Assembly: GCA_964481155.1 (NCBI GenBank)
Contig: CAYZSX010000002.1
Coordinates: 1 to 57,529 of the forward strand
DNA: 57,529 nt
Direction: 5' to 3'
DNA from: an uncultured Candidatus Saccharibacteria bacterium
Lineage (GTDB): Bacteria; Patescibacteriota; Minisyncoccia; Phycocordibacterales; UBA9973
Below the pieces are notes generated by a model that was not told the DNA's origin, ran no database searches, and saw only the letters and a program-made list of their open reading frames with translations. The stretch's first letter is position 1; each line of letters begins with the position of its first letter. A program made the translations under genes and the position numbers. This document shows, piece after piece, positions 3,136 through 42,695 of the stretch.

Positions 3136-5623
<2,488 letters not shown>

Positions 5624-5639
<16 letters not shown>

Positions 5640-6232
5640 GGTGTGAGTATGATTGATTGTGTTGTAGATTTCCTATTAGTACCGTTGAGCCAGTCCATCC
5701 GAGCGGTAACGATAAGCTGCGGATCAGGTGTAGTTGTCACTAGATCCATTTTGACTGTTCGCACAAACGATGTTTCGTACCGATTTGTATCTGCATTGGA
5801 AGGATCAAACACATTGAGAGAGCCGGTATATCCATAAAATCCTGATGCTGGGAAATATGAAAGATTGGGACAATCACCTGAACACCCGACAACAGCATCG
5901 CTTACACTGTATGAGCCTTGGTATGCATCACTATATGGATTGATAATGCAGCCGTCACTATTTATATCTGTTCGACATTGCTTGTATTGATCAATCCATG
6001 TATTCCAATCCAAACCTCCCTGGGCAGCGTTGTCTCGCGTATTTCTGATAAATTCGAGCGATTCTTGGAGAAGATTTGCTGCAACAATATCGTTTTTGGC
6101 ATACCGTATAGAGAAAAATCCACCCGCAGTAAGTGTCAGCAGTGCCCCGATCGTGAGCGCGAGAATAAGAATCGCGATGAGTGTCTCGATAAGCGTAAAC
6201 CCTTTTTGGTTTTTGATGCTCTGTTTTTTCAT
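5624..6232 (-). CDS. minor pseudopilin with prepilin N-terminal methylation motif
   Basis: 202 aa with MKKQSIKNQKG/FTLIETLIAILILALTIG, a class III signal peptide with Glu at position +5. Confidence 0.8.
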
Positions 6233-6235
6233 ATA

Positions 6236-6868
6236 TTATGTACCAACGATTGGTTCTGGGGTGCGCTGTGAGAGTAGTGTCTGTACAGCAAACGGTACTG
6301 AGGTACCACCTGGCACCGATGCAACACCTTCTATCTTGACGATAACACTCGGTTGAGCTCCATCAGTATACTCTGCTCCATCCACATAAAAACTAAACGA
6401 ATCGATAGTGATCTCTGGTGATGTGATAGCGATCCAGTCGCTATCACGGGGTACTTCTGGTATTCCTGAGGTGATATCGTTGATGCTTGTTACAAAGCCA
6501 GTGTTTCTTTTTTCTATAGCACCGTTGTTGAGTCGATACTCTACAACCTGACGTTTGCCGAGCGTACTTCGCATTGAAATAATCTCATTGGGGCCAGCAC
6601 TAATCGGTTTGATTCGACAATTAGGGTCGCCCGTATTTCGAAACTCACTTCCACAGACAATCTTTTCACTCGTTCTGATATTGCGACTCATCGACTCCAT
6701 AGCAAAGTTGAGGTTGTCCATAACAGTACGCATCGCCTGGACACGTCTGGATGCATCGTTGACCGTATAGAGCGATGCGACAAGTGCAAGCACGACGATG
6801 ATAAAGAGCGAGAGCGATACCATGAGCTCAACGAGGGTGAATCCGGATTGTGATGAGTGGTACTTCAT
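6236..6868 (-). CDS. minor pseudopilin (PilW-like) with prepilin motif
   Basis: SQSG/FTLVELMVSLSLFIIVVLALV. The start was moved to the internal Met (MKYHSSQSGF) at 6868, which removes the overlap with the upstream gene ending at 6874. Confidence 0.75.
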   Translation of the reverse strand: MKYHSSQSGFTLVELMVSLSLFIIVVLALVASLYTVNDASRRVQAMRTVMDNLNFAMESMSRNIRTSEKIVCGSEFRNTGDPNCRIKPISAGPNEIISMRSTLGKRQVVEYRLNNGAIEKRNTGFVTSINDITSGIPEVPRDSDWIAITSPEITIDSFSFYVDGAEYTDGAQPSVIVKIEGVASVPGGTSVPFAVQTLLSQRTPEPIVGT

Positions 6869-12201: not shown

Positions 12202-13929
12202 CTATAGGCCGTAGACCTCTTGCATGAGGACATCTCCACTGAGCGCCTTTAGAAGTGCGTCTTCTCGCAGTGTGGTCATCCCTTTTGCACGACATGCCTT
12301 ATAAATCTCTTGCTCAACTGGGTTTTTGAGGATGATCTGTTGGATGTCTTTGTCGACCTCAAACATCTCAAATACTGCGATACGACCTCGAGTCATCGAT
12401 GGTGCTTCTGAGGAAGGTTTGACATCGTACATAGTTGTAGGAATCGATAGTTTCGACCGTACTTCAGGGTTGAGGTCAGCAAATTCTTGATCGATAAATG
12501 CCTTGGTCGCATCATCGATGGGGACTTGGTGGCGTGCACTCGGATGGACTCGTCTGACGAGACGCTGCGCCATCGCAAGGACGAGTGTCGGCGCGATGAG
12601 ATATGGATCGATCCCCATGTCGACGAGACGTGGCACGATACCGATCGAGTTGTTGGTGTGGATAGTCGAGAGCACGATGTGACCCGTGAGCGCCGCCTGG
12701 ATCGCAAGCTCAGCGGTTTCTTTGTCACGGATCTCTCCGACCATAATGATGTTGGGGTCCTGGCGAAGAATCGAACGTAGTCCTGCTGCAAACGTGTACC
12801 CGATCTCAGGAAGCACCTGTGACTGTGTCACGCCAGGGATTTGGTACTCGACCGGGTCTTCGAGTGAAACGACGTTGGCGCTTTCGCGGTCGATATCGTT
12901 GAGCATCGAATAGAGTGTGGTTGATTTACCAGATCCGGTTGGACCCGAGATGAGGATCAGGCCATACGGACGCGCGAGCGCTCGTCTGATCATCTCGCGC
13001 TGTTGTGGTGCCATGTCGAGATCATCAATCTTGCGGATACCTCGTTCAGAATCAAGGATACGCATCACGATCTTTTCTCCAAAGTATGCGGGGAAGGTCG
13101 AGACACGAAACTCAATCTTGCGACCTTCGATCATCGTAAAGAACGATCCGTCTTGTGGTTTGCGCTTTTCATCAAGACGAAGTTTGGACAAGATTTTGAC
13201 ACGAGCAACAATACCATCAAATGTATTGAGTGGTAGGACCAACGTAGTATGGAGCGTACCATCGACACGATAGCGGACTTTGACCTGTTCACCATTGTTT
13301 TCGATGTGGATATCTGATGCTCCACCTTCAACTGCGTGGTTGATGATCACTGCGACGATTTTGATGATTGGTGCATCTTCGACAATCTTTGCCTCGCCTT
13401 CTCCTGTTGAAGGTTTGAGTACATCGCCTTTGTTTTGCAATACCTCTTTGTTTGCAAGCTCAAGCTCGTCGTTGAGATCATTTACCGCTTTGTCGACTTC
13501 AGTACTGACTCCTTTGTATACCTCAATCGCTGCGAGATAGTCGCTATGTGAAATCAAAAATATCTTGAATGGTACCGCAAGTTTGACCGAGATAAACTGG
13601 AGCGCATTCATCGCCTCGATGTTTTCTGGTTCAGTCACACCGATAGATAATACGCCATCTGCAAATGCGATTGGGACAAACTTGTAGTGGGTTGCAGCAC
13701 TCTCTTCGACATATCGAACGATGTCTGGAGTAAGCGCACTGATATTTACTTTTTGGTATGGAATCTTGTAAAACCCTGCTTTTGCAGTAGTAACCGCGTC
13801 TTCAGTTACCCCGACGGATACGAGTGCTTTTGTGAGGTCACCGTGGAACTCAGTATCCAAGGTGTTCATCACCTTGTTGTATTGAAGCTCTGTGATTGTC
13901 CCTTGCGAAAGAAGAAAGTCGAGAAACAT
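12202..13929 (-). CDS. pilB: type IV pilus assembly ATPase (GspE/PilB family)
   Basis: 575 aa. N-terminal T2SS-E N domain, Walker A GPTGSGKSTT, IMVGEIRDKETA and TGHIVLSTIHTN. Confidence 0.9.
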   Translation of the reverse strand: MFLDFLLSQGTITELQYNKVMNTLDTEFHGDLTKALVSVGVTEDAVTTAKAGFYKIPYQKVNISALTPDIVRYVEESAATHYKFVPIAFADGVLSIGVTEPENIEAMNALQFISVKLAVPFKIFLISHSDYLAAIEVYKGVSTEVDKAVNDLNDELELANKEVLQNKGDVLKPSTGEGEAKIVEDAPIIKIVAVIINHAVEGGASDIHIENNGEQVKVRYRVDGTLHTTLVLPLNTFDGIVARVKILSKLRLDEKRKPQDGSFFTMIEGRKIEFRVSTFPAYFGEKIVMRILDSERGIRKIDDLDMAPQQREMIRRALARPYGLILISGPTGSGKSTTLYSMLNDIDRESANVVSLEDPVEYQIPGVTQSQVLPEIGYTFAAGLRSILRQDPNIIMVGEIRDKETAELAIQAALTGHIVLSTIHTNNSIGIVPRLVDMGIDPYLIAPTLVLAMAQRLVRRVHPSARHQVPIDDATKAFIDQEFADLNPEVRSKLSIPTTMYDVKPSSEAPSMTRGRIAVFEMFEVDKDIQQIILKNPVEQEIYKACRAKGMTTLREDALLKALSGDVLMQEVYGL

Positions 13930-26679: not shown

Positions 26680-28176
26680 TTATCCAAGGATAGAATCTTG
26701 TGTCTTTTTGATCGTACTGTTTACTGATTCTTGTGTGCGAACAATGTCTTGCTTGATCTGCACAAGCGCGCTTCGCTCTGTTTCTGTGAGATGTTGTGTC
26801 GAGTGAGATTTGAGAAGTAACCGTGCATATTCTTCGAGATCACTATCGATTGCTTGGAACTTTTTGCGAACATCGTTTTCTCCGACAAGCAGATCAGCAG
26901 CAACACGTTTCTTGAAGCGCTTGTACCGAGCAAGTGTATAGATAATGATAAAGAAGAAAACAAAGAGGAGTGCGATGAGTGGAATAATGAGTGAGAGCGT
27001 GTTGGTGAGCCAGAGTGTGAGACGTGAAAATACGTCATCGTGCACCACGATACGTACTGGTGCCGTTGGGGTGCTCTGAAGTCCTCCTTCAGATACAGCA
27101 CGTGCATAGATCGAGTAGCTACCGGATGAAGCTTTTTCTGGAGAGATATAGTTAAACTCACCCTTTTCATTAGCAATGGTTGTAGACTCAACTGGTCGAG
27201 TATCTGGATTGACGCCGGTGATGCGCGCAAAGAACGGGAATCGCCCCGGCAATCGTGTAGTGGTAAAGACTACTTTTGCTCGAGGATCAGCGATACCCTT
27301 GAGTACCATATATTCACCCGCAAATACATTTGTTGGGTAATCAGTGATAACTGGCTGACTCAAGTTTTTGGTTACAAAATCTGCAAAGGCAGTCAGTAGC
27401 ACACCATCTGGAGTAAGTGTTTTGAATTTTATGAGATGTGTACCCCGGGCAAGCTGCGGTGTCTGAAATACATGTGTCCCATCATCGGTCCATGTGATAA
27501 GTGGCAAATCATCTATTTGTACATCGTATTGCTGACCAGGATCAAGGAGTGTCGTGCTGATACGAAACTGTGTATACGGAGTAAATTCGTCTGCTTTAGG
27601 CACCTCTTCAACAGAAAGTGTATGCGTTGTCGTTGTTGGAACTACAGGGGTTTCTGTTATTGTTTGACTTGGGGCGGCAGTAGCTTTGGCAGGCCCGATG
27701 ATAACACGAGCGCTTTCACGAGCATTTAAAACATTGGTACCCTCCCCATTGTTTGCAAGGACGCTACCACTTGTCACCTCGACTGATGCAGTACCAGCCT
27801 TTTTTGCTTTAAAAACAAGTGTCACTACGGTGCCGTTTGTACCAGTAAATCCATTGAGTGCAATCGCTTCAAACTTGGCAGTACCTGTCGCATTTGAAAA
27901 CGTTGGTTCCTGTGCCCACAAGGTCATGATAGAACCTGTTTTGGATATAGAAGAGAGTGAAAGTAAATCAGTCGGATATGTAATCGTTGCAGCAGCACCA
28001 TTGATAGACTGCGTATCACTTGAAACTGCCACTTTGACCCGGACCGTATCTCCAACAGCGTATGAAGTTGATGTCGGGATAGCTTTGAGGACAGCTGCAT
28101 GCGCGACGATGCTCCCACTCGCAAGTGAGAGCATGCATACGACAATCATTATCTGTATCTTATGTTTTATACGCAT
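26680..28176 (-). CDS. membrane-anchored cohesin-domain surface protein
   Basis: Signal peptide (MRIKHKIQIMIVVCMLSLASGSIVAHA). Cohesin-like module (AVGDTVRVKVAVSSDTQSINGAAATITYPTDLLSL...FEAIALNGFTGTNGTVVTLVFKAKKAGTASV). Beta-rich Ig-like segments, a C-terminal TM (LIIPLIALLFVFFFIIIY) and a roughly 85-aa charged cytoplasmic tail. Confidence 0.7.
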   Translation of the reverse strand: MRIKHKIQIMIVVCMLSLASGSIVAHAAVLKAIPTSTSYAVGDTVRVKVAVSSDTQSINGAAATITYPTDLLSLSSISKTGSIMTLWAQEPTFSNATGTAKFEAIALNGFTGTNGTVVTLVFKAKKAGTASVEVTSGSVLANNGEGTNVLNARESARVIIGPAKATAAPSQTITETPVVPTTTTHTLSVEEVPKADEFTPYTQFRISTTLLDPGQQYDVQIDDLPLITWTDDGTHVFQTPQLARGTHLIKFKTLTPDGVLLTAFADFVTKNLSQPVITDYPTNVFAGEYMVLKGIADPRAKVVFTTTRLPGRFPFFARITGVNPDTRPVESTTIANEKGEFNYISPEKASSGSYSIYARAVSEGGLQSTPTAPVRIVVHDDVFSRLTLWLTNTLSLIIPLIALLFVFFFIIIYTLARYKRFKKRVAADLLVGENDVRKKFQAIDSDLEEYARLLLKSHSTQHLTETERSALVQIKQDIVRTQESVNSTIKKTQDSILG

Positions 28177-29038
28177 ATCGTTTGTACAACCACACCATTG
28201 CAGGAAAGATACCAAGTAACAATACAACAATAACTATCGCAACTGAAACTCTGTTGATCGGTGTACCGATTGTAACTATTGTTTTGTTGCCTGCATAATC
28301 AACTGCACGTACCTCTAGTGTAGCGCTATCGCTCTGATCTTCCAAGCGATATGGGCTTGATATTCGTTTCCATTCTCCATTTTGCTCTCGCACTTCTACG
28401 TACCATACCCCTGACTGCGCATCAGTCGCAGAAAATACAAGTACAGCGTCGCCATTATATAGATCAGATTCATGTACTCGCTGTGCTTGCAGTACTGGTG
28501 CGATAGTATCGGTGACAGTATATGTTTTGTTTGATGCTACAGAAGAAACCGTGAGTGTACTCTCAGATGAAGTGATCGGTGTGATCGTACCGTCACCATC
28601 ACCAGCTGCAACTGATCCACTCGAGACGATACGCGCAGTTCCTGGTGCGATTGATTCAAACACCAAACGAACGAGTTTCCCTGACTTGCGCACCGATGGT
28701 TCAAATGGATCGATAAATCCTGCAAAACCGTTTGGGATGATACCGCTAAATGACGTAGTACCCTGTCCCATCTGTGGCGATTCAATCCAGAGCGAGACGA
28801 TAGATTCACCGTCTTCGACTCGGACAAGTCGCAATGTATCAGTGCTGTACCTAATAGAGCTTTCGATACCATTAATAGTTGCACCCTCGGTATCAAGGAG
28901 CGCATCAACAGTGAACTGCTCTCGGAGATCAACCGATGCTGGATGCTCGAGATTGATCACCGCAGCATGTGCATAGAGCGGCAGTGCGAGTGCAATGATC
29001 ATACTCATTATAAAAGTGTGATGTGTTAGTATACGCAT
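28160..29038 (-). CDS. membrane-anchored cohesin-domain surface protein (short paralogue)
   Basis: 292 aa with a signal peptide. Cohesin-like module (EQFTVDALLDTEGATINGIESSIRYSTDTLRLV...IIPNGFAGF...GKLVRLVFESIAPGTARI), one Ig-like domain and a C-terminal TM (VAIVIVVLLLGIFPAMVWLY). Confidence 0.7.
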   Translation of the reverse strand: MRILTHHTFIMSMIIALALPLYAHAAVINLEHPASVDLREQFTVDALLDTEGATINGIESSIRYSTDTLRLVRVEDGESIVSLWIESPQMGQGTTSFSGIIPNGFAGFIDPFEPSVRKSGKLVRLVFESIAPGTARIVSSGSVAAGDGDGTITPITSSESTLTVSSVASNKTYTVTDTIAPVLQAQRVHESDLYNGDAVLVFSATDAQSGVWYVEVREQNGEWKRISSPYRLEDQSDSATLEVRAVDYAGNKTIVTIGTPINRVSVAIVIVVLLLGIFPAMVWLYKRYAYKT

Positions 29039-29040
29039 AC

Positions 29041-29922
29041 TTATCCTGTCCAGTTAAATGCCATGATTGAAAAGTCGACAAGTGTGACCGCGCCGTCGTT
29101 GTTGAGATCGACTTTGACAGGCACTCCAGTCTTTTTGTACCAAAACGCCATGATTGAAAAGTCTATCAAGTTTACTCGAGTATCGCAGTTGACATCGCCT
29201 CGAAGTTTACTACAACTACCCGGTGTTTTGGGGATACTCACATCACCAACCTTAAACGGAACTGCATCACTAAACAAACTCACATCAGCAGGTGCAATCG
29301 CTGCTGATTTGGTACTGTGATCACCGTACTCGAGCACACCACTATCAAATCGCAAAAAGTAGGCTCCTGATTGGTTGGTAGGGATCCGTCTGATGTGTTG
29401 TGTTGGCGAATGCACAACGATCGAGACTTCGGCATTGGGTATACTTCGTCCAAAGATAGCGATAGGTTCACCCTTTTTGACCTGCAGTTTGTCGACATCG
29501 ATTGTTGGTGAGATAAATATCCCCCCGATTGTGACCGATGTACCAGCGGTCACATATACTGGAAACGAATACGATGTTGACTTGCGACCATCACTGTCTT
29601 CGCCATACACACCAAACGTATATCCTCGCTGAACAAGATCAGAAAGGGTTACCGAAAACTTTGCCTGCGGATCTGCAACAGTCGTTGCGACGATCACCCC
29701 GTCTTGCACGATGACTACTTTAGAAAGCGGGTAGGCCATCCCCGAAAATATCACCTGCGTAGGACTCGACATACTTCCACCACCTCCCCCACCCCCTGGG
29801 GCACTTGGACTATTGACCTGTGCTGATATAACAACAGAGTTTACGGTTTGTGCTTGAACACCCGCACTACAGAGGACTAACGTAAGTGCACATACGAGGA
29901 TATATCTACTGAGCATCGTCAT
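29041..29922 (-). CDS. secreted dockerin-containing protein
   Basis: The start was moved to MTMLSRYILVCALTLVLCSAGVQAQ. A poly-Gly linker and two beta-sandwich-like segments follow. The C-terminus is a duplicated dockerin Ca-binding repeat: GDVNCDTRVNLIDFSIMAFWY and DLNNDGAVTLVDFSIMAFNW. Confidence 0.7.
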   Translation of the reverse strand: MTMLSRYILVCALTLVLCSAGVQAQTVNSVVISAQVNSPSAPGGGGGGGSMSSPTQVIFSGMAYPLSKVVIVQDGVIVATTVADPQAKFSVTLSDLVQRGYTFGVYGEDSDGRKSTSYSFPVYVTAGTSVTIGGIFISPTIDVDKLQVKKGEPIAIFGRSIPNAEVSIVVHSPTQHIRRIPTNQSGAYFLRFDSGVLEYGDHSTKSAAIAPADVSLFSDAVPFKVGDVSIPKTPGSCSKLRGDVNCDTRVNLIDFSIMAFWYKKTGVPVKVDLNNDGAVTLVDFSIMAFNWTG

Positions 29923-30922: not shown

Positions 30923-32005
30923 TTAAAACGTGCCAGTTGCTACGTATGTGATTGATGTTGCATACGAACCAGCAGGGGTTGTGGAAGCAATATTGGCAAG
31001 ATAGTGCATTGCAATAGAGTCACTTGTCGGAGCTGAAGCAGAAGCAAGTGTTGTGGTAGTTGTAGGAACAAAGTTCCAATCGTTTGCACCGTTGTTATAT
31101 CCAGAAGCAACTGTTCCACCTCCAGTGAGTGCTGCTGCGAGTGCAAACTGTTCACTACCCGGGGTACCGTTTGCATCACCAGTAATTGTTGCCGCATCGA
31201 TCGTATTGAGACCTGAAGTAAGTGTTGGGCCATTGTATGTCAACACATATCCGCCAGTCGCATTGGTTCCAACAGTCATTGTGTGTGCAGTGGTATCTGT
31301 TCCTGAACCAGAAGCAGCGCTGTTTGCGTATCGTGCGGCTGCAGCAGAAAGAGTACCAAACCCGATTGATGCATCGTCGTTTGCAAACGTAAGAGTAGGG
31401 TTAACTGTTGCAGTGATCGAAACGACTGAATTGGTCTCTATCGAAACTGCCGCAAGCCCAGTGTCGCCGTTTGATTGTGTAAGTGAAACTTGTGATGAAT
31501 CAACATCTGAACCATTGGTCATGGTACCAGTACCACTTGCGGTAGTACCGTTTATCACGAAAGTAATATTTGCATTTGCGCCTGACGCATTCCAGCTTGC
31601 ACAAGTAGTGATTGTAAACGTGTTGTTTGTCGTATCGATAGTGACTGTATAGTTGTTACTCCCAGCACTACACGAGGGCGCTGCGCCCACTGCGACTGGT
31701 GCTTGGTTACTTCGAGTACCGTCACTAAACGCAAAATCTGATGTCTGCCAGTTGCCGATACTGTTGAGAGTAAAATCAGTATTTGAAAAATCAATCGCAT
31801 ATGTTTCTGCGGTAGCAACCGTATCACCCCCCACCAATGTCCAGGTAAGTGTATGGGTTGCAGTCGTTGATGGCAACTGCGTTGACATTGTGTCTTTGAA
31901 CGAAGAGACCGATGCGGCTTCTGCAATGAGTGAGAGTCCTGTGTGGACAAAAAGAAGAATCGCGACAAAGAGTACCGAAAGAATGTTTTTTGTGTACGTT
32001 TTCAT
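30923..32005 (-). CDS. secreted Thr/Ala/Gly-rich protein sharing its C-terminal domain with the giant protein
   Basis: 360 aa with a signal peptide (LLFVHTGLSLIAEA). The C-terminal roughly 165 aa (IGFGTLSAAAARYA...AHTMTVGTNATGGYVLTYNG...GSEQFALAAAL...NIASTTPAGSYATSITYVATGTF) align with the C-terminus of the 2129-aa protein encoded immediately upstream. Confidence 0.7.
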   Translation of the reverse strand: MKTYTKNILSVLFVAILLFVHTGLSLIAEAASVSSFKDTMSTQLPSTTATHTLTWTLVGGDTVATAETYAIDFSNTDFTLNSIGNWQTSDFAFSDGTRSNQAPVAVGAAPSCSAGSNNYTVTIDTTNNTFTITTCASWNASGANANITFVINGTTASGTGTMTNGSDVDSSQVSLTQSNGDTGLAAVSIETNSVVSITATVNPTLTFANDDASIGFGTLSAAAARYANSAASGSGTDTTAHTMTVGTNATGGYVLTYNGPTLTSGLNTIDAATITGDANGTPGSEQFALAAALTGGGTVASGYNNGANDWNFVPTTTTTLASASAPTSDSIAMHYLANIASTTPAGSYATSITYVATGTF

Positions 32006-32054
32006 ACTGCACTGCAGTATACCCTACGTCAAGCGACACCGTCTAGTGGATAAC

Positions 32055-35000
32055 CTAAAAGTTTCCTGTAACAACATAGGTGAGATCAGTTGCATAACTA
32101 CCTGCAGGAGTTGTGGAAGCGATGTTGCACATATATCGAGCTGAGTATGTCGTATCAATTCCATCACCCGAGGAAGCGCTTGCGACCTGGCTAGTAGTTG
32201 TCGCATCGGCGCCGTACGCAAACCCCGACGCTGCATACGGACTCGAGACTGTACCACTACCACCACTGGCCACAAGCCTGAGCCCGAACTGCTCGCTACC
32301 GATACTTGGCACCGTGTTGGTCCCACCGATTGCACTGATCGTGTGCCCTACCTTGCCGAGCGATGCCCCTCGCACCGTGAGTGAGTATCCTGATGGCGCA
32401 CTTGTACTGATTGTGATTGTGTGCGCCTCTGTTTCAGTACCACTTCCTACCGCGTCTCCTGTTGCATATCTTGTACCAGTTGCAGAAAGTGCTCCAAATC
32501 CAATCGTTGCATCAGAGATACTAAACGTGATTGATGTATTGATCCAACAAGTACCGTTGTTGCCTGAGTTGGTAAGGTTTGTCGGATTGAGAAAGATAGA
32601 TCCGCTCTCACAAGCACTATCTTGTACATCCACATAACTAACACTCGCTGTACCTGTTGGGTGAAATTTCCATTGAGTACCACTCGAGTCTGATCGCAAT
32701 CTGATGAGGTTGCCTAATGATCCTGTCACCGTAAACAATCCACTCACGGTAAATATCGGCGATCCGCTCGTCTGGAACTGTACTTCTTTTGCAGCGGTGT
32801 GGGTGATAGTGAGGTTGTTGAACGTCGTTGCCCCGCTCACAGTCGCAGTTGTAGCGCCATTCATCACTACTGTGGACGTCCCCGCGGTAAACGTACCTGT
32901 GTTGGCCCAGTTGCCGGTGAGTGTGATCGTTGCCCCTTGACCGAGGACTGTACCAGTACCACTGATAGTAAGATTGCCCGTAGTAAATGCGTAGTTTTGA
33001 CCACTAACTGTATCGAGCGTACCCGCAGATACTGTTGTCGTACCAGAGACAGTCGTTGCAGCAGCGAGACTTTTGGTACCAGCTGTTGCAATAGTCAAGT
33101 TGAAGTACGGGTTTGTTGTTGGGGTTTTGATGGTTTGCGTAGATCCGCCATAGATGACAGTGTTGGTACTCGTCGATGGCACAAGGGTGCCTGTAGACAT
33201 GACTGTGCTATCAAACTCTGTCGTAGATCCTGACCCTGTTGCAAATGTTGACGACGCATTGCCACCTGTTACCGATGAAACAAAGTTAACAAGACCAGTG
33301 TTGTTGTTGGTCAGCGTCACTCCACTTGCGATCGTCACCGCCCCACCAAACGACATGTTTGAGCTCCCTGCGAGGTTTTGGTTGGCACTAAATATCGTCG
33401 CAGCACTACCACTATTGAACGTTGTACCATCCATCGTGATGCCGTCTCCAAATGATGTTACCGGATTTACCGGAGACATATCAAACACACCGCCTGGATC
33501 AATCGTCACCAATCCGGTAAACGTCTTGGTCCCAGTTGCTGATGTCACTGACACAAGCGATCCGTCAATTGTTGTTGTGCCTGCAAAAGTGACTGCCACC
33601 CCACCAAGAGAGAGCGTCCCTGATGGGATACTCAGGTTCCCAAATGTATACGCACCAGTGATCGACGATGATCCTGTGGAAACAAGTGTACTAGATGCAT
33701 TGATTGAAAGCGTCCCGTTTGCAGGGATAGCTCCTGTGAGGTTAAGCGTACTGTTTGCGCCCATGGTCAAAAAGTTTACTGAAGCTATACCGACAAAACT
33801 TATACCGGCACCTGCAGTGAGTGTGCCTGTATCGAAACTAACATTGATAGTTCCGCCACCGCTAACACCTCCCCAAACGATCAATCCGGAAGATGCAAGT
33901 GTGCAATCCCTCATTGTAAGGTTGATGCTACCAGTGACTCCTGAGTTTCCTCCTTGGAGGCTTATACCTGTTGCACCAACAGTGAGCGCCCCCGTTGCAC
34001 TTGCTGCACACGTGATATTGGACTGACCGGTCGAAGTCGGGCGGTTGATGGTGAGCGACCCTGCAGTGATGTTGGCAGTGCCGTTCATGGTGATGGTTTG
34101 TGTGTTGGCAGTTGCGTTAGCAGTGTAGGTGACCGCACCAGTGACGTTGGTGGTAGAGCCGGTGGTGAGTGAGAGACCGTTGGATGCCACTGGGCTTGCG
34201 ATCGTGAGCGCTCCCATGGTGACTGTACCGGTGTTTGAGTTGGTGAGCGTCACCCCAGAGTTGACCGTCACGGTACCCCCGAGTGATATGTTGCCCGCAC
34301 CGAGCAAACTCAGCGAAGTGCCCATGGTCACCGCACCAGTACCACTGTTGAACGTCCCTGTACTATCCACCGTGATATTGCTATCAAAACGAGTCGTTGT
34401 TGCAACAGCAGAAAGATCAAAAGATCCTCCAGAGTTGACCGTGACAGTTCCAGTAAATGTCTTAAGACCTGTAGCCGATGCACACACCAGCGAACCTGAA
34501 ACAACTGTGTTCCCAGCAAACGTAATCGCAACATTGTTAAGTGTAGTTGTGCCAGATGAAACCGTAAAATTACGAATAGTATACGCACCCGAAATTGCCG
34601 CAGTACCAGTTGTGTAAAGAGTGTTTGCACTATCAAAAGTTAATGTTCCACCAGAACCAAGTGTCCCTGTAAGGTTGAAGTTACCGGAACCTATGTTGAG
34701 CACATTGCGCGCTGCTGTACCAGTAAAGGTGACACCAGCACTTGCAGTAAGTACTCCGGTAGTTGTTGTGAATGTGATATTTCCTCCTGTAGTACCTCCC
34801 GCGATCGTGAGTAGTCCACCCGACGTAAAGCTGCAGGTATTCATTGTGATGTTGACAGTCGCAGTAGCTGTCGAGGCACCGTTGATCGTTGCGGCCCCCG
34901 TCGTTGCAAACGTCCCTGTTGCACTTGCTGCACACGTGATATTGGACTGACCGGTCGAAGTCGGGCGGTTGATGGTGAGCGACCCTGCAGTGATGTTGGC

Positions 35001-38000
35001 AGTGCCGTTCATGGTGATGGTTTGTGTGTTGGCAGTTGCGTTAGCAGTGTAGGTGACCGCACCAGTGACGTTGGTGGTAGAGCCGGTGGTGAGTGAGAGA
35101 CCGTTGGATGCCACTGGGCTTGCGATCGTGAGCGCTCCCATGGTGACTGTACCGGTGTTTGAGTTGGTGAGGGTCATGTTGGTTGGGACGGTGACCGTAC
35201 CACCAAGCGAGACGTTTCCTGATCCGCTGATCGTGCGCGTCCCGGTACCAGTGAGCGTCACTGCCCCACCACCACTATCAAATGTCGTACCGTTTGCCGT
35301 GATGTTACCACCAAAACTCGTCACTGCTGCAAAGTTGCTACCTGTACGCAAATCAAATATACCTCCTGAGTTCACTGTAATCCCCGCACTAAACGTCTTG
35401 GTACCGGTCGCGCTTGAAGTCGTCAATGTCGCACTGTTGGCAACTGTCACGAGTCCCGCATACGTGATCGCAACCGCACCCATCGTCGTTGTACCACTGT
35501 TGACGTTGAGTATACCGAACGTCGTCGCGCGACTCAGTGTCACGGTACCAGTTGTGTTGAGCGCCGTACCTGCGTTGATCGTCACGGTACCACCAGTACT
35601 CATCGTGCCAGTAAGGTTGATCGTCGAGGCACCGGCATTGGTGATTCGTGCTTGTGCAGCGGTACCTGCAAACGTGATACCTGCAGTCGTAGTAAATGTA
35701 GAGCCAGCAGAAAGCGCAAGTACACTGTTGCGACTTGCAGTTGCACTTCCTGTGATCGTGATACCTGCGGTCGAAAATGTACCGGATGTACCTCCTCCAA
35801 CCGTGATAGTATTGGCAACCGCAGCACCGGGTGATGGGATACTCGTCGTACCAGTGACCGTAAACGTCACTCCGTTGCTGACCGAAAGACCTGCAGCTAC
35901 TGTCGATGCAGCAAACGTGAGTGATTTGATAGTGACAGTTGTGTCTGCAGTCACCACTACTCCTGAGTTGATTGTGAGGTCATCGTTTACCCCGGGACGG
36001 TTGCCAGTACCCGATCCACCACTTGCAGCACCCGTACAGTTGACGAAGCTTGCGGTTGCACTCCATGTACCTGTAGCAGTTGCATTACAAGCCGCGTCCG
36101 ATGCAATCTGCCACTGACGATCTTCTTCAAAAGAACTTGTGCCTGTCATCACCGCTGGACCCAAAAGATAAAACTCCGGACTTATATCTGGTGCATTGAA
36201 ATAATATCCAAGCTGCACGGTCTCCCCCGCTGATATCGATACATCCCAGGTGATGAGTTTGGTATCACCGTCTTCGGTCACACTATCGTATGCTTGGCTT
36301 TGCTGTGGGAGCGATACCTCAAACGACACAGGGACGCGTTCGGTGACAGTCCCCTCCCACGCAGTATCACTGGTTACTCGGAGTGTCATCGGGTATAGCG
36401 CAACAGGATAGATACGTGTCGGGCCTGTGCGCACAACCGCAATTGATAAATCTGACTGAACACTAAACGTGTCAGTGATTTGCTTTGTTCCGTTTGCAGT
36501 GTGTGCAGTCAAACGCATTGTATAGACACCTTGTTCGCCGGGAATCGTATAGTATGCAAAATAATCAGGCACACTAATGACATTGTTTGGACCACACTCT
36601 GGAGCACGGACGATACTTCCATCATCAGTACTTTTGCTTACAACAGTACCGCTCGGTGTACTAATCACAAGATCAAGATCTGCATCACAAATAGTATGCC
36701 CACCATCATTGAGTACACCCATTTGTAAATACGCTGTAGCGCCTGGACGGTACACACTCATATCAGTGTTGATCGCAAGTACTCCCCAACTAAAGTCTTG
36801 CTGTGAGACAAGGATCGCTTGCGGCGTCGTGACAGTCACAACGAGTGTGTATTTACCCGGACGAAACGACCGATCAGGACGATCGATCTGCACACGGCGC
36901 TTACCAGTTGTGGTGTCAGTTATCACTGCTACTGGTATATCCGTTGGTGCACCGTTGTCATCGAGTATCTGTGCTTCGACATTTGAAGTTTGCGCCTCAG
37001 CAACGGTCGGAGTTAGTAGTGATTTGAGCAAAGAAACAGGTGATGATTCGCTTTGTGGTTGTTCGAGAGGAGTAGGTGGTGGCAATATAAGTTCTTTGGA
37101 AGTATCGATTGTTTCTTGGATAGTCTGTACCACTTCATCAATCGCTTGTGTATGCTCTGGATCATCTACCTTTTCACCAAGTACCCCGGCAGTATCTTTG
37201 ACGACATCAGCTTTGCCTTCTTGGACGAGTGTCTTGATATCTTCGGTTGTGTAGTTGGGAGTTTCAAGGGTAAAGGTAACATCTTCGGTTGGATTAAACC
37301 CATCTTTACCACTGATGAGAGAGTCAGCATCTTTGAGGACAACAGTTGGTTTCGTAGGGACGTTTTCCATGTCGGTATACTCAACATCGAGTTTGACCGC
37401 ATCGAGATACACTGTCGGGAGCGCATCAAATGTTGGCAACGTTTTGAGCGCTACTTGGAGCGTGCTAAGGTTTTCCCATTTTTCAAGCGGAATCTCAAAC
37501 GATGCACGTTTCCATTCACTTCGACTGATCGTACCGAGTGTGTTCCAGGTAGTACCGTCGAGTGTGTACGAGACTTCCATAAACCCATCTGAAACTGTGC
37601 CGCTGCTCGACTCAGTGACTACTTCCTCGATAGGCACAGAGGCATCTTGTGCTTCTATTGTATCTGCTGTACCCACTGCTTCTTCTGCGGAGCTACTTAC
37701 ATCAACAGCGGGTGCTTCTTCTTGTACTGACTGTGTTGATACCTCTTCAGAAACAGTGGGAGGAGTTGGGTCTGACTCTTGCGCAAGGACACGAGTTGTG
37801 AAGAGGTGTTTGAAAAATGACACCGTAGTACTCTCGGTAGCAGATTCTTGTGCGGGGACAGATTCTTGTACCGATTGTTGTTCGATTGTAGAACTATCTT
37901 GTTCTTGAGCTGGGATGACGATACCTTGTGCGGGTATATCAAACGGTTGCGGTTCGGTACGGATCGATGATGAATCTTTGTCTTCTACCGACCATGAGAA

Positions 38001-38444
38001 CGTGAGTTTAAATGTCTTGGGGTTTGCGTTTTCGGGAATCTCTCCGGTAAATGATCCGCAATATATAGAGGAGACTGTGCCCGACATCCGCGCAGAGTTT
38101 TCTACTGAAAAGTCTTGAGCGCTTGATTCGTTGGGAAGTGAGGGTGCGCCTTGCGCATTGTCAACACGTTCCCAGTCGCCCAAACAGGACTGCGGATAAA
38201 ACGTTGCAACTGACGCATGTCCTGTCGAAAACGAACTGAGCACGAGTGCACCAATGATAATCGATGCGATGATAAAAAACTTGTGTTGGTGTGCAAACCA
38301 CCACGCGGTGATCTGTGCTTTGTTGATTTGGATCGCAGGGAGCTTTTTTTTGAGATCGAGTACTGGTCGCGACACCGTACGCGCGATATCTCCCACGACG
38401 GGTGGTTTTTGCGGCTCGGTTTTCTTGCGACCTGAAATTTTCAT
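32055..38444 (-). CDS. giant (2129 aa) membrane-anchored repeat-containing surface protein, putative adhesin
   Basis: Basic N-terminus plus a TM anchor (FFIIASIIIGALVLSSF). An acidic Ser/Glu/Val-rich linker and Ig-like domains follow. The central roughly 1000 aa are Thr/Gly/Ala/Ser/Asn-rich, predicted beta-helix, arranged as at least three modules of about 308 aa. The C-terminal domain matches that of the 360-aa neighbour. All long ORFs on the opposite strand are shadows of this gene. Confidence 0.85.
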   Translation of the reverse strand: MKISGRKKTEPQKPPVVGDIARTVSRPVLDLKKKLPAIQINKAQITAWWFAHQHKFFIIASIIIGALVLSSFSTGHASVATFYPQSCLGDWERVDNAQGAPSLPNESSAQDFSVENSARMSGTVSSIYCGSFTGEIPENANPKTFKLTFSWSVEDKDSSSIRTEPQPFDIPAQGIVIPAQEQDSSTIEQQSVQESVPAQESATESTTVSFFKHLFTTRVLAQESDPTPPTVSEEVSTQSVQEEAPAVDVSSSAEEAVGTADTIEAQDASVPIEEVVTESSSGTVSDGFMEVSYTLDGTTWNTLGTISRSEWKRASFEIPLEKWENLSTLQVALKTLPTFDALPTVYLDAVKLDVEYTDMENVPTKPTVVLKDADSLISGKDGFNPTEDVTFTLETPNYTTEDIKTLVQEGKADVVKDTAGVLGEKVDDPEHTQAIDEVVQTIQETIDTSKELILPPPTPLEQPQSESSPVSLLKSLLTPTVAEAQTSNVEAQILDDNGAPTDIPVAVITDTTTGKRRVQIDRPDRSFRPGKYTLVVTVTTPQAILVSQQDFSWGVLAINTDMSVYRPGATAYLQMGVLNDGGHTICDADLDLVISTPSGTVVSKSTDDGSIVRAPECGPNNVISVPDYFAYYTIPGEQGVYTMRLTAHTANGTKQITDTFSVQSDLSIAVVRTGPTRIYPVALYPMTLRVTSDTAWEGTVTERVPVSFEVSLPQQSQAYDSVTEDGDTKLITWDVSISAGETVQLGYYFNAPDISPEFYLLGPAVMTGTSSFEEDRQWQIASDAACNATATGTWSATASFVNCTGAASGGSGTGNRPGVNDDLTINSGVVVTADTTVTIKSLTFAASTVAAGLSVSNGVTFTVTGTTSIPSPGAAVANTITVGGGTSGTFSTAGITITGSATASRNSVLALSAGSTFTTTAGITFAGTAAQARITNAGASTINLTGTMSTGGTVTINAGTALNTTGTVTLSRATTFGILNVNSGTTTMGAVAITYAGLVTVANSATLTTSSATGTKTFSAGITVNSGGIFDLRTGSNFAAVTSFGGNITANGTTFDSGGGAVTLTGTGTRTISGSGNVSLGGTVTVPTNMTLTNSNTGTVTMGALTIASPVASNGLSLTTGSTTNVTGAVTYTANATANTQTITMNGTANITAGSLTINRPTSTGQSNITCAASATGTFATTGAATINGASTATATVNITMNTCSFTSGGLLTIAGGTTGGNITFTTTTGVLTASAGVTFTGTAARNVLNIGSGNFNLTGTLGSGGTLTFDSANTLYTTGTAAISGAYTIRNFTVSSGTTTLNNVAITFAGNTVVSGSLVCASATGLKTFTGTVTVNSGGSFDLSAVATTTRFDSNITVDSTGTFNSGTGAVTMGTSLSLLGAGNISLGGTVTVNSGVTLTNSNTGTVTMGALTIASPVASNGLSLTTGSTTNVTGAVTYTANATANTQTITMNGTANITAGSLTINRPTSTGQSNITCAASATGALTVGATGISLQGGNSGVTGSINLTMRDCTLASSGLIVWGGVSGGGTINVSFDTGTLTAGAGISFVGIASVNFLTMGANSTLNLTGAIPANGTLSINASSTLVSTGSSSITGAYTFGNLSIPSGTLSLGGVAVTFAGTTTIDGSLVSVTSATGTKTFTGLVTIDPGGVFDMSPVNPVTSFGDGITMDGTTFNSGSAATIFSANQNLAGSSNMSFGGAVTIASGVTLTNNNTGLVNFVSSVTGGNASSTFATGSGSTTEFDSTVMSTGTLVPSTSTNTVIYGGSTQTIKTPTTNPYFNLTIATAGTKSLAAATTVSGTTTVSAGTLDTVSGQNYAFTTGNLTISGTGTVLGQGATITLTGNWANTGTFTAGTSTVVMNGATTATVSGATTFNNLTITHTAAKEVQFQTSGSPIFTVSGLFTVTGSLGNLIRLRSDSSGTQWKFHPTGTASVSYVDVQDSACESGSIFLNPTNLTNSGNNGTCWINTSITFSISDATIGFGALSATGTRYATGDAVGSGTETEAHTITISTSAPSGYSLTVRGASLGKVGHTISAIGGTNTVPSIGSEQFGLRLVASGGSGTVSSPYAASGFAYGADATTTSQVASASSGDGIDTTYSARYMCNIASTTPAGSYATDLTYVVTGNF
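33994..34247. repeat. 254-nt exact direct repeat, copy 1, inside the giant gene
   Basis: Base-for-base identical to 34918..35171 when compared by eye across the full length. The offset is 924 nt, or 308 codons. Confidence 0.95.
34918..35171. repeat. 254-nt exact direct repeat, copy 2, inside the giant gene
   Basis: Identical to 33994..34247. It encodes ...TNSNTGTVTMGALTIASPVASNGLSLTTGSTTNVTGAVTYTANATANTQTITMNGTANITAGSLTINRPTSTGQSNITCAASATG, which appears twice in the protein. Confidence 0.95.
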
Positions 38445-40880: not shown

Positions 40881-42695
40881 TTAGAGCGTTTCTCCTGCTG
40901 GAGGTTCGGGGTCTTGTGACACCTCTTGTTCTTGTGGTGTTTGCGTATCAGTAGGAGGCTCTGTGGGAGCATCTGCTTCAACAGTGGTTTGCACTGGTTG
41001 TACTGGTGCAGCGGACTGTGTCTGAAGGAGCTGTTTAAGTTCGACGAGCTGCGCCTTAGTCAGACACTCCGATGATCCATCAGGATCGGTGAGACAGATC
41101 TCTCCGGTAAAGATACGCGTGATGCGGTTCCCGACATCGCCAAGCCAGTTTCTGAGAACACCTGCAAACGACCCTTCCGTATTAAGCGATGCAATATCCT
41201 GCACCTGCACATCAAGCTCTTGGATGGCTTTGGTGAGTATAGGAGCCATGCCAGCGTAGTTGACTTGGAGGTATCCATTGGATGCTTGTGAGACAAGGAG
41301 CGGGAAATGTTGCCTCATGTCTTGTGCGATAAACCCAACCTGGGTGCCAACTTTGGTGTTCTGGCTCCATTCATACGTCACTGTTCTGAGTGAACGTAGT
41401 GTATCGAGCGTATCAGTGAGGTCACTCACGTCTGTCTTGAGTCGTTCATCTGACGTACAGGCGATGCCGGTACCTGTGGTGATCGTACACTCAGTTCCGC
41501 CAGTGCCAGTAAAAACTGTGGCATCGATAGGCACCCCACCGTTACCAATCATTAGTTGGTTTGAAGCGGTGTTGGTAGCACCAGTACCAAGCGCGATACT
41601 ATCTACAAAACCGCCAGTTGAAGTATCATTTCCAATCAGAATCGAGCTTGAACCTCCAGTGTTGTCGACTGTGTCACCCTCGCCCGCCTCGTAACCAATA
41701 AAAATTGAGTTTGCAGCATTGGTTGCACCATTACCCGAGTTAAAACCAAGCATAGTCGAATTGGTTGCAAACGCAGCACCGCTTCCTGAAAAAAAACCTA
41801 TAAATGTTGCCCTGTCTGCATTTGAAGCATTAAACCCAGCGCTTTTACCAATAGCAACGGAAGCAGATGCATTTGAAGCAGCAACCCCAGACCCCTCTCC
41901 TATAAAAACACTATCTGCTGCATTTGTAGCACCATAACCACTAATTGAACCAATAAAAACGGATTTTGTTGCATCGGTAGCATTAGCACCAGCATTTTCA
42001 CCAATAAAAACACTTCTGAAATATGTAGGCGGAAATCCGCTACTATATACAGAATCTGTTGCGGTATTTAATCCAGCATTTTCACCAATAAAAACAGAGT
42101 ACGTTGCGTTCGGGGCAGTATACCCGGAAAAACCTCCTATAAAAATAGAATATTTTGCGTTCGTTGCATTTTTCCCGGCTTGTTGTCCAAAAAAGTTTGA
42201 ATATTCTGCATTTGTAGCTCCTAATCCAGCTTGATTTCCGATAAAGTTTGAAACTTGCGCATTTGTTGCAAGGTAACCTGCACCCCCGCCAATAAAGACT
42301 GCGTTCGTTGCATTAGTTGCATTACCACCAGCATCAGTTCCTATGTATACGGTATCAACACTTGATCCTCCTGTTCCCGCATTCCCAAGCCACGTCTCTG
42401 TCCCGAGCTCTGAGGTCGAGCCAATAAGATTTGACCCTCCACTCACTGTAGCCCAGCTCAGTGTCGTACCGTCAGTAGTGAGATATTTTCCATTGTTTCC
42501 TGTTTGATCAGGGATGATGAGTACCGTACAGTTCGTATCCCCTGGTGCACATGATGGATCAAGCGTTTGTCCTCCCGTGTATGGTGAGCCAGGCGGTGTT
42601 GCGTATGCGGTGAGTACCGAGAATGCGCTCGCGATGAGGAGTGCGAGGATTGTTTTTTTGTGGTTGTGATACGTTGTTACAACAAAAGACAGCAT
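40881..42695 (-). CDS. tail-fibre-like surface protein with a peptidase S74 intramolecular chaperone domain
   Basis: 604 aa with an N-terminal signal/anchor (ILALLIASAFSVLTAYA). About 300 aa of periodic repeats of roughly 17-18 aa follow (NATNA..S.FIG..AG). Next come CTSDERLKTDVSDLTDTLDTLRSLRTVTYEW...GFIAQDM...VNYAGMAPILTKAIQEL, typical of the S74 self-cleaving chaperone of phage tail spikes and endosialidases. The tail is Pro/Thr/Gln/Glu-rich. Confidence 0.75.
   Translation of the reverse strand: MLSFVVTTYHNHKKTILALLIASAFSVLTAYATPPGSPYTGGQTLDPSCAPGDTNCTVLIIPDQTGNNGKYLTTDGTTLSWATVSGGSNLIGSTSELGTETWLGNAGTGGSSVDTVYIGTDAGGNATNATNAVFIGGGAGYLATNAQVSNFIGNQAGLGATNAEYSNFFGQQAGKNATNAKYSIFIGGFSGYTAPNATYSVFIGENAGLNTATDSVYSSGFPPTYFRSVFIGENAGANATDATKSVFIGSISGYGATNAADSVFIGEGSGVAASNASASVAIGKSAGFNASNADRATFIGFFSGSGAAFATNSTMLGFNSGNGATNAANSIFIGYEAGEGDTVDNTGGSSSILIGNDTSTGGFVDSIALGTGATNTASNQLMIGNGGVPIDATVFTGTGGTECTITTGTGIACTSDERLKTDVSDLTDTLDTLRSLRTVTYEWSQNTKVGTQVGFIAQDMRQHFPLLVSQASNGYLQVNYAGMAPILTKAIQELDVQVQDIASLNTEGSFAGVLRNWLGDVGNRITRIFTGEICLTDPDGSSECLTKAQLVELKQLLQTQSAAPVQPVQTTVEADAPTEPPTDTQTPQEQEVSQDPEPPAGETL

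Follow-up and report, generated by a model that had tools for sequence, protein, structure and literature searches.

A candidate Pam-type pilus operon with a giant acceptor-only subunit, a WxLIP-like helper, and a dockerin/cohesin base in a Candidatus Saccharibacteria genome

Introduction

Six consecutive genes on a 57,529-nucleotide (nt) stretch of contig CAYZSX010000002.1 (assembly GCA_964481155.1; the whole stretch is referred to as the window), derived from an uncultured Candidatus Saccharibacteria bacterium, probably constitute an operon for a chaperone-assisted donor-strand-exchange pilus with a tip adhesin, a helper resembling the WxLIP proteins of WxL clusters, and a dockerin/cohesin base. 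This reading starts from a C-terminal domain shared by a giant protein of 2,129 amino acids (aa) and its 360-aa neighbour, both of which pass a curated model for the C-terminal domain of Pam pilins. The locus is a distinct variant of the Pam system, featuring a giant acceptor-only subunit at the presumed tip, a single WxLIP-type helper, and dockerin and cohesin proteins at the presumed base.

Bacteria of the candidate phyla radiation (CPR) live attached to host cells, and the means of this attachment are largely unknown. Pam pili, described in Ca. Mycosynbacter amalyticus, have been visualized as filaments by cryo-electron microscopy (cryo-EM) (Troman et al. 2026 preprint, 10.64898/2026.03.03.709456). 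A Pam pilin consists of an N-terminal domain, a linker, and a truncated immunoglobulin (Ig)-like C-terminal domain; PamA and PamB subunits are joined by donor-strand exchange, the linker of one filling the open C-terminal domain of the next. PamC and PamD are two PapD-like chaperones with two Ig domains and a retained C-terminal transmembrane (TM) helix. PamT comprises the C-terminal domain alone and is the proposed tip, and PamR, which resembles RbmA and has one additional strand at its N-terminus as well as a TM helix, is the proposed terminator and anchor (10.64898/2026.03.03.709456). In WxL/Csc clusters, a WxLIP protein, identical to CscA and composed of DUF916, DUF3324, and a TM segment, accompanies small and large WxL proteins, and AlphaFold2 predicts insertion of a WxLIP strand into the WxL domain (Hassan et al. 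2023, PMC10599100).

The six-gene locus

The six genes lie in one co-directional string on the minus strand, running from 38444 to 26680, and are separated, in order, by 49 nt, 3 nt, an 11-nt overlap, 2 nt, and a 17-nt overlap; gyrB flanks the string upstream and thrS downstream. The interval in which an initial annotation had placed the shared domain, 30926-32560, comprises the whole 360-aa gene and the last ~168 codons of the giant gene. The genes and the elements within them are as follows.

32055-38444, minus strand: giant 2,129-aa protein, from its translation
32058-32543, minus strand: Pam-type C-terminal (acceptor) domain of the giant protein, residues 1968-2129, assigned by NCBIfam model NF058581
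30923-32005, minus strand: 360-aa pilin with signal peptide, N-terminal beta-sandwich domain (residues ~32-189), linker, and Pam-type C-terminal domain
31394-31438, minus strand: pilin linker, presumed donor strand, residues 190-204, ETNSVVSITATVNPT, assigned by conservation, structural model, and linker profile
30926-31393, minus strand: Pam-type C-terminal (acceptor) domain of the pilin, residues 205-360, assigned by BLASTP against the giant domain and by NF058581
29906-30919, minus strand: 337-aa WxLIP/CscA-like membrane-anchored protein, presumed chaperone
29041-29916, minus strand: 291-aa presumed terminator/adaptor with signal peptide, donor-like strand, poly-Gly spacer, Big_6 domain, and dockerin
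29803-29850, minus strand: mature N-terminus of the 291-aa protein, QTVNSVVISAQVNSPS, a donor-strand-like motif followed by APG and GGGGGGG
28160-29038, minus strand: 292-aa membrane protein with signal peptide, cohesin-type domain, OmpL47-type Ig-like domain, and C-terminal TM helix
26680-28176, minus strand: 498-aa membrane protein with signal peptide, cohesin, a further beta-rich region, TM helix, and cytoplasmic tail

The same order, namely the giant or another domain carrier, the pilin, the WxLIP-like protein, the Big_6/dockerin protein, a ~290-305-aa protein, and a ~300-500-aa protein, recurs in four further loci (L011-L014), the pilins of which are 87, 60, 59, and 49% identical to the window pilin and the flanking genes of which differ from those in the window. 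In 71 of 80 further loci, the WxLIP-like gene lies directly downstream of the domain-carrying gene.

A Pam-type domain shared by the giant protein and the pilin

The initial annotation had proposed that the two proteins share a C-terminal domain of roughly 165 aa and are otherwise unrelated, and both parts of this proposal are borne out. The three peptide blocks on which it was based occur verbatim in the translations, and the pairwise alignment suggested as a check, carried out by BLASTP with composition-based statistics, returned a single significant match, in which residues 1968-2129 of the giant protein and 201-360 of the 360-aa protein are identical at 81 of 167 columns (49%, E = 4e-25); no other segment of the two proteins aligns (all E > 10). 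The domain is very probably a member of the Pam pilin C-terminal family, since both proteins pass NF058581 (CPR_Pam_pilin_C, "Pam pilus system pilin subunit") with scores of 64.5 bits for the 360-aa protein and 68.9 bits for the giant at a cutoff of 55. The isolated domain gave no Pfam match at E <= 10, either for the two window domains or for 20 family members, and neither the domain nor its profile matched any sequence in the PDB. The idea that the domain is a shared polymerization or docking module is supported, its likely identity on sequence grounds being the Pam pilin C-terminal domain. It had further been suggested that the small and the giant protein dock onto one shared receptor. The shared docking is retained in the present interpretation, whereas a separate receptor protein is not favoured: the "receptor" of both domains is most likely a donated beta-strand provided by the pilin linker or by the chaperone.

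A filter-free phmmer search of 1.84 billion representative proteins with the giant domain as query found 462 relatives at E <= 1e-3, 95 of them at E <= 1e-30. Among the 150 relatives listed, which range from 146 to 3,243 aa, the domain ends at the last or second-to-last residue, and in the 145 sequences in which it was located by a hidden Markov model (HMM; listed hits and the two window proteins) at most five residues follow it. When one genome per prokaryotic species was scanned, 224 coding stretches with the domain were obtained. Their record titles name Nomura-, Uhr-, Falkow-, Kaiser-, Doudna-, Kerfeld-, and Peregrinibacteria, Paceibacteria/Paceibacterota, Parcubacteria, and "Saccharibacteria", and the titles that name a lineage are mostly CPR. 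The closest source-named relatives of the window proteins are labelled Pacebacteria, Nomurabacteria, or Patescibacteria. A few automated "Gammaproteobacteria" titles are doubtful. Contigs filed as "uncultured Gammaproteobacteria" or "Pseudomonadales" (L020, L045, L046, L049, L051, L052, L056, L071, L085, L092, and L094) carry the CPR-type domain, most of them also encode a CPR-type chaperone, and one is 876 kb in length. These automated labels are probably erroneous; were they correct, the domain would extend beyond CPR bacteria.

The pilin linker and its absence from the giant protein

The 360-aa protein has 379 matches at E <= 1e-3, of which the 120 listed are 308-391 aa in length, mostly full-length, and assigned to CPR/Patescibacteria where a source is given. 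Its AlphaFold2 model, built with 50 homologues, shows two beta-rich domains at a mean predicted local distance difference test score (pLDDT) of 91.5. Residues 190-204, which connect these domains, have no secondary structure in the monomer model, and the pLDDT dips to 83; across the 50 homologues A199 and V201 are invariant and V195, T200, P203, and F207 nearly so. The 360-aa protein hence displays a two-domain pilin plan with a single conserved linker. In Pam pilins, conservation is highest in the donated linker and in the site that binds it (10.64898/2026.03.03.709456), a description matched by this unstructured yet near-invariant segment. The N-terminal domain gave no sequence match to any Pam-specific NCBIfam model.

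A linker HMM derived from the pilin alignment was applied to the 30 residues preceding the domain, both in the window proteins and in those phmmer hits with a located domain, and a generic donor motif, [VI]x[IV][STGAQ]Ax[VI], was counted within 25 residues of the domain. Both depend strongly on protein size. The HMM reached at least 10 bits in 1/17 proteins of up to 260 aa, 18/45 of 261-420 aa, 0/50 of 421-1000 aa, and 0/33 of more than 1000 aa; the corresponding figures for the generic motif are 3/17, 20/45, 1/50, and 0/33. With a linker score of 38.8 bits for the window pilin as against -1.0 bits for the giant, and with the generic motif likewise absent from the latter, no pilin-type linker was detected upstream of the giant domain. 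A subunit with an acceptor domain and no donor linker could occupy only the first-assembled, distal tip end of a donor-strand polymer.

At its N-terminus, the giant protein has a long charged segment and a hydrophobic span (residues ~56-72) followed by GHA|SV, which together look like an extended signal peptide or an anchor. An acidic region (residues ~150-450) and a weak MG2-like Ig match (residues 559-606; Pfam MG2, sub-threshold) are followed by a passenger region of ~1,200 aa, of which 60-74% is T, S, G, A, or N. The passenger matched no Pfam family above threshold and no solved structure in a PDB sequence search, the only PDB matches being spurious ones to DHBP synthase at E ~4e-3. In place of the pilin linker, large carriers show other conserved junctions; that of the giant, NSGNNGTCW between the passenger and the Pam-type domain, is of the type C..GAI.I.PTNS.NSGNN.SCW. 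Orthologues of the giant are present in L011 (79% identical) and, partially, in L014. Solely from size, composition, and presumed tip position, the giant would be taken for an adhesin. Its gene contains a 266-nt direct repeat, 99% identical between the copies at 33987-34252 and 34911-35176, with a spacing of 924 nt (308 codons), which indicates a recent duplication or expansion, or gene conversion, of a ~308-aa passenger module; self-BLAST of the protein listed no internal repeat. Assembly collapse or variation in length could also be concentrated at this 266-nt repeat.

The 337-aa protein is a WxLIP homologue

The initial annotation had ascribed a CscA-like architecture to the gene downstream of the pilin, and this assignment has held up. 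The 337-aa protein consists of a signal peptide, two Ig-like domains, and a C-terminal TM helix; its AlphaFold2 model (pLDDT 83) has helices at residues 3-21 and 296-336 with two Ig-like beta-sandwich domains between them. The top Foldseek matches of the model are the Enterococcus faecium WxLIP structures 9i1y_A (E = 1.4e-10) and 9i25_C (E = 1.6e-10, TM-score 0.54 on the target), the latter being a WxLIP bound to a long WxL protein. RbmA follows further down, as do CsuC and CfaA, chaperones of the chaperone-usher pathway (~8e-7). By architecture, the protein fits PamC and PamD as chaperone, and its model matches WxLIP better than CsuC or CfaA. Comparison with Pfam WxLIP_PGBD (DUF916, PF06030) remains sub-threshold (22.4 vs 27.3 bits), as it does in 25 of 46 family members, and in a tblastn search of 72,556 plasmids 7 of 16 weak matches fell on genes annotated as DUF916. 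In profile comparison by hhalign against seven Firmicute WxLIP proteins from plasmid records, the 337-aa family aligned with 94.9% probability (E = 4e-8) over 203 columns spanning both domains, and with two actinobacterial DUF916 proteins added, likewise from plasmid records, the probability rose to 99.0% (E = 3e-18), whereas reversed-sequence and unrelated-domain controls gave at most 1.1%. The 337-aa protein is therefore truly homologous to Firmicute WxLIP/CscA, as a superfamily relative and not as a member of the curated Pfam family. Already in a published table, CPR genomes, TM7x among them, are listed with DUF916 matches at E < 1e-10, on which no comment is made.

Outside the CPR, a plasmid of Deinococcus sp. 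AB2017081 (NZ_CP140100.1, 2851-8536; L095) encodes a 272-aa protein that scores 38 bits with the CPR chaperone HMM and apparently lacks a TM helix. Small secreted proteins are encoded on either side of it, followed by a 1,090-aa protein with a CarboxypepD_reg domain, and the locus possibly represents a diderm relative in which an usher-like partner is present. A neighbouring protein ending in ...KLTGTF was considered as a domain carrier and rejected, as it does not match the domain HMM.

A dockerin protein with a donor-like N-terminus and two cohesin proteins

The 291-aa protein, which has no TM helix, scores above the Pfam cutoffs for Big_6 (31.8 bits) and Dockerin_1 (23.3 bits), and so do its orthologues, with Dockerin_1 scores of 24.4 and 32.3 bits. 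Both of the following gene products end in TM helices. The 498-aa protein matches Pfam Cohesin with 39.1 bits at a cutoff of 24.1. The 292-aa protein is 34% identical to the cohesin domain of the 498-aa protein over 158 aa (E = 1e-17) and scores 39.7 bits, just below the cutoff of 40, with the NCBIfam model for the OmpL47 barrel. A gene for a ~300-500-aa protein occupies the position of the 498-aa gene in L011-L014; a weak Cohesin match was obtained in L011 only, and a Pfam scan of the protein at this position in L012 and L014 returned no match. An NCBIfam usher match on a truncated dockerin protein was dismissed as noise (E = 0.06).

After signal peptide removal, the dockerin protein begins with QTVNSVVISAQVNSPSAP-GGGGGGG. 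Its motif, VVISAQV in the window, is represented in orthologues at the same place by VVISAQV, VNISAIV, VSIGATV, or VTISATV, followed by a Gly or Pro spacer, and QTVNSVVISAQV is a candidate donor edge strand for the groove of the C-terminal domain, as is the pilin segment VVSITATV. In the 39 loci with a visible start of the gene following the chaperone, the generic donor motif occurs within residues 16-65 of its product in 26, compared to 0.5 expected from a background of 2.8e-4 per residue, an approximately 50-fold enrichment. After clustering at 60% identity, 20 of 24 clusters carry the motif (binomial P ~7e-34), a value that is not a clean probability since the expression was written after examples had been seen and the proteins are homologous; the enrichment is large even so. 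In other loci (L043, L057-L060, L070, L072, L075, L079, L083, and L084), the gene after the chaperone is an alternative partner from another family without donor-like motif, starting AQT(M/L)NS(G/T)xYxxExSxxDGGGExSSSxNY, while it is housekeeping-like in L065 and pilin-like in L093.

A model for assembly

According to the proposed model, all products would first be exported by the Sec machinery. The membrane-anchored 337-aa protein would then lend a strand to the incomplete Ig-like C-terminal domain of each exported subunit, until the linker strand of the next pilin (VVSITATV) displaces the chaperone strand, generating a head-to-tail chain. The giant protein would be the first and most distal subunit, a tip adhesin analogous to FimH or PamT. 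The 291-aa protein, having a donor-like N-terminal strand and no acceptor domain, would cap the base, functionally like PamR. Finally, its dockerin may bind the cohesins of the two membrane-anchored proteins, which would tether the filament to the cell.

Several observations weigh against this model. The filament is predicted here from genes alone, none having been seen in the organism. The giant domain scores 46.7 bits with the NCBIfam PamT model NF058579, far below its cutoff of 240, and the 337-aa protein matches no NCBIfam model, including the Pam-specific ones. Foldseek with the full-length pilin model returned generic two-Ig-domain matches (integrins, MSCRAMMs, RbmA, cohesins, and CfaB at rank 50) and was set aside as non-discriminating. 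The linker is present in only ~40-45% of the pilin-sized proteins of a hit list that was seeded with the giant domain and is thus biased towards tip-type proteins. At the presumed base, Dockerin_1 exceeds its cutoff of 22.9 bits in the window protein by a small margin, and the N-terminus of that protein is missed by a 21-residue linker HMM; an HMM of the 10-residue core ranks three of five orthologues high and leaves the window copy outside the top 40. To these points, the retrospective choice of the motif expression must be added.

Alternative readings

The shared domain had initially been compared to WxL, spore coat protein U (SCPU)/Csu, and DUF4402 proteins, on account of its terminal strand. 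Strict-sense membership in any of these families is improbable and was not borne out: in the two window domains and 20 family members, PF13731 (WxL), PF05229 (SCPU), and DUF4402 found no match at E <= 10, and the domain has no sequence match in the PDB. There is indeed a resemblance at the very end, the pattern G-x-Y-x3-(I/L)-T-(Y/W)-x-(V/I/L) being common to the domain and to WxL termini such as SYESKLTYSIVTGP of Bacillus anthracis plasmid pXO1. A homologue search with a Rossellomorea WxL protein retrieved no sequence other than the query, and WxL domains were therefore taken from plasmid records. When ten such domains, drawn from six plasmids and verified with Pfam in one case, were compared by hhalign to an alignment of 124 Pam-type domains, the last two strands, and only these, were placed in register (Y-x3-LTY on Y-x3-ITW) with a score of 19.8 compared to 9.7-12.3 for controls; the overall probability was nevertheless an insignificant 1.5% (P = 0.034), reversed-sequence and N-terminal-domain controls being at noise level. 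Inclusion of actinobacterial sequences as bridges raised this value to 2.3%, still insignificant. These actinobacterial domains, encoded beside DUF916 genes, are relatives of Firmicute WxL domains (84%, E = 7e-6) and show 1.4% with the Pam-type domain, so that no bridge is formed. If, by contrast, the similarity between the giant and the pilin were a by-product of local duplication or gene conversion, or of a composition rich in T, S, G, and A, the domain would have no modular function. It is true that the genes neighbour each other, that both proteins abound in these residues, and that the giant gene contains a recent internal duplication. This reading has, however, been effectively refuted by the BLASTP, phmmer, and hhalign results: the E-value of 4e-25 includes compositional adjustment, a curated family model is passed, the hhalign controls stayed at noise, and the domain recurs in the 462 relatives, always at the C-terminus in the top 150. 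The giant domain is moreover 62-80% identical to the C-termini of other large proteins and only 49% to the copy of its neighbour, which points to an old shared module or to paralogues and not to local gene conversion.

The small and large WxL proteins of Firmicutes have been proposed to be held non-covalently at the cell surface, and the window locus could likewise encode a display complex without filament, in which the domain docks on the 337-aa protein and/or the cell wall and both proteins are held non-covalently. In favour of such a complex, which we consider unlikely on balance, the 337-aa protein is a WxLIP homologue, the locus has the composition by which WxL clusters are defined in the literature (one WxLIP plus two proteins, one small and one large, with a common C-terminal domain of ~160 aa), and PDB entry 9i25 captures the corresponding interaction in WxL proteins; the locus has a single pilin gene, and the terminal strand of the domain resembles that of WxL domains. 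On the other hand, the domain is not detectable as WxL by Pfam or hhalign and passes the model of Pam pilins, which form filaments as judged by cryo-EM. Display alone would also leave unexplained the conserved linker of the pilin-sized proteins and the matching N-terminal motif of the dockerin protein. Display and the donor-strand pilus may not be mutually exclusive if WxL clusters, too, employ strand complementation. A broader scenario can be put forward tentatively, and we rate it below even chances: a single ancient system of strand complementation, usher-less, assisted by a chaperone, and belonging to envelopes of the monoderm type, would have given rise to two branches, the Pam pili of CPR bacteria and the WxL/Csc clusters found in Firmicutes and Actinobacteria, with WxLIP/CscA as the membrane-anchored chaperone and the WxL domain as a divergent homologue of the Pam domain. 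In the Paceibacteria-type variant of the window, giant adhesins would sit at the tip, and a dockerin-cohesin pair would take the place of a TM terminator in tethering the filament to the membrane.

Some observations were made on the WxL side of this comparison. Actinobacteria appear to have WxL-type clusters that attach enzymes. On a Streptomyces plasmid (L004, NZ_CP033582.1), a 677-aa GH43/ricin-like protein with a WxL-like C-terminus is encoded by an unannotated open reading frame (ORF) at 4795-6828, directly followed by a DUF916 gene. Together with a 208-aa protein from a Clavibacter plasmid (L003, 6101-6727), it yields the 84% hhalign match to Firmicute WxL. In pXO1 (L009, NC_007322.2), a WxL and WxLIP gene pair at 4193-5954 lies beside type IV secretion-like genes; the WxL terminus, SYESKLTYSIVTGP, has Y where the second W would be and is, of the WxL variants, the closest to the Pam-type terminus.

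Comparison with known systems

The locus shares with Pam pili the pilin C-terminal domain family, the two-domain pilin plan with a conserved linker, a Sec-exported two-Ig helper with a C-terminal TM helix, one acceptor-only subunit without linker, and one subunit with an N-terminal donor and no acceptor; the prevalence of CPR among lineage-naming record titles and a nearby Peptidase_S74 tail-fibre-like gene are further common features. Despite this relatedness, several differences exist. The acceptor-only subunit has 2,129 aa as opposed to the small single-domain PamT, and one pilin and one chaperone gene stand in place of PamA/B/E and PamC/D. The donor-only subunit consists of Big_6 and dockerin without a TM helix, whereas the RbmA-like PamR possesses one, and it is followed by two cohesin membrane proteins. 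Neither the N-terminal domain nor the chaperone matches a Pam-specific NCBIfam model, and the lineage is probably Paceibacteria-like, in contrast to the Saccharimonadia and Microgenomatia on which the preprint places its emphasis. With WxL/Csc clusters, the locus has in common a 337-aa protein homologous to WxLIP, of the same size and architecture, and a small and a large protein sharing an all-beta C-terminal domain of ~160 aa, large partners often being adhesin-like. It differs in that W-x-L motifs are absent from the shared domain, which has no Pfam or hhalign support as WxL, and that there is no LPXTG-bearing CscD-like gene. For WxL clusters, in turn, no filament formation is known, and they contain no linker/donor motif, dockerin, or cohesins.

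FimH, the tip of type 1 pili, comprises a passenger and an acceptor pilin domain without donor strand, and PapH, by the same logic of polarity, is a donor-only terminator of chaperone-usher pili. The window locus resembles chaperone-usher pili (Fim, Pap, Csu, and CFA/I) in combining an acceptor-only tip, shaft subunits with both elements, and a donor-only terminator, and in a chaperone model that matches CsuC and CfaA. It is distinguished from them by the lack of an outer-membrane usher and of a free periplasmic chaperone, the cell presumably being monoderm, and by a donor that is an internal linker, not an N-terminal extension, except in the terminator. Neither an usher-like gene nor a PapD Pfam match (PF00345/PF02753) was found in the operon. 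As in cellulosomes, Dockerin_1 and Cohesin are found on the products of successive genes, and the proteins that bear the cohesins are cell-anchored; unlike in cellulosomes, these domains occur here in a pilus operon of a CPR genome without glycoside hydrolases, and no known precedent was found for the tethering of a filament base, the role that they may fulfil.

Should the proposed model be correct, a Pam-type domain would serve to mount diverse passengers of up to ~3,200 aa on a pilus tip, and searches for this domain would provide a catalogue of candidate host-recognition proteins across many CPR lineages. The WxLIP homology would tie the CPR machinery to the little-understood WxL clusters of enterococci, lactobacilli, Listeria, and Bacillus, including pXO1, and would suggest strand complementation by WxLIP as a testable mechanism for these clusters. 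A dockerin-cohesin pair would constitute a previously unreported way of anchoring a donor-strand pilus. The text of the Pam preprint mentions neither WxL, cohesin, dockerin, nor Paceibacteria (10.64898/2026.03.03.709456), and the link between Pam and WxL is found neither there nor in the 2023 WxLIP paper (PMC10599100).

Neighbouring genes and additional domain carriers

A protein of 604 aa is encoded just beyond gyrB (40881-42695, minus strand); it contains Peptidase_S74, an endosialidase chaperone domain that is typical of tail-fibre-like proteins, and has an orthologue in L011. A "tail fibre-like protein" is a recurrent neighbour of pam operons (10.64898/2026.03.03.709456). A co-directional run of ORFs at ~9.5-16 kb, which includes a gene at 12202-13929 (minus strand) for a type II/IV secretion ATPase containing MshEN (T2SSE, E = 8e-114), is probably a type IV pilus cluster; in this case, the genome would have two unrelated pilus systems within 25 kb.

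In L012 (8893-9891) and L013 (8879-9886), an extra protein of 332-335 aa carries the Pam-type domain behind a different N-terminal domain and without pilin linker, and is preceded by a membrane protein of 146-154 aa. A 1,799-aa protein encoded nearby in L012 has no Pam-type domain. Taken together, these extra carriers and the domain-free protein suggest that the tip subunit is exchangeable between loci.

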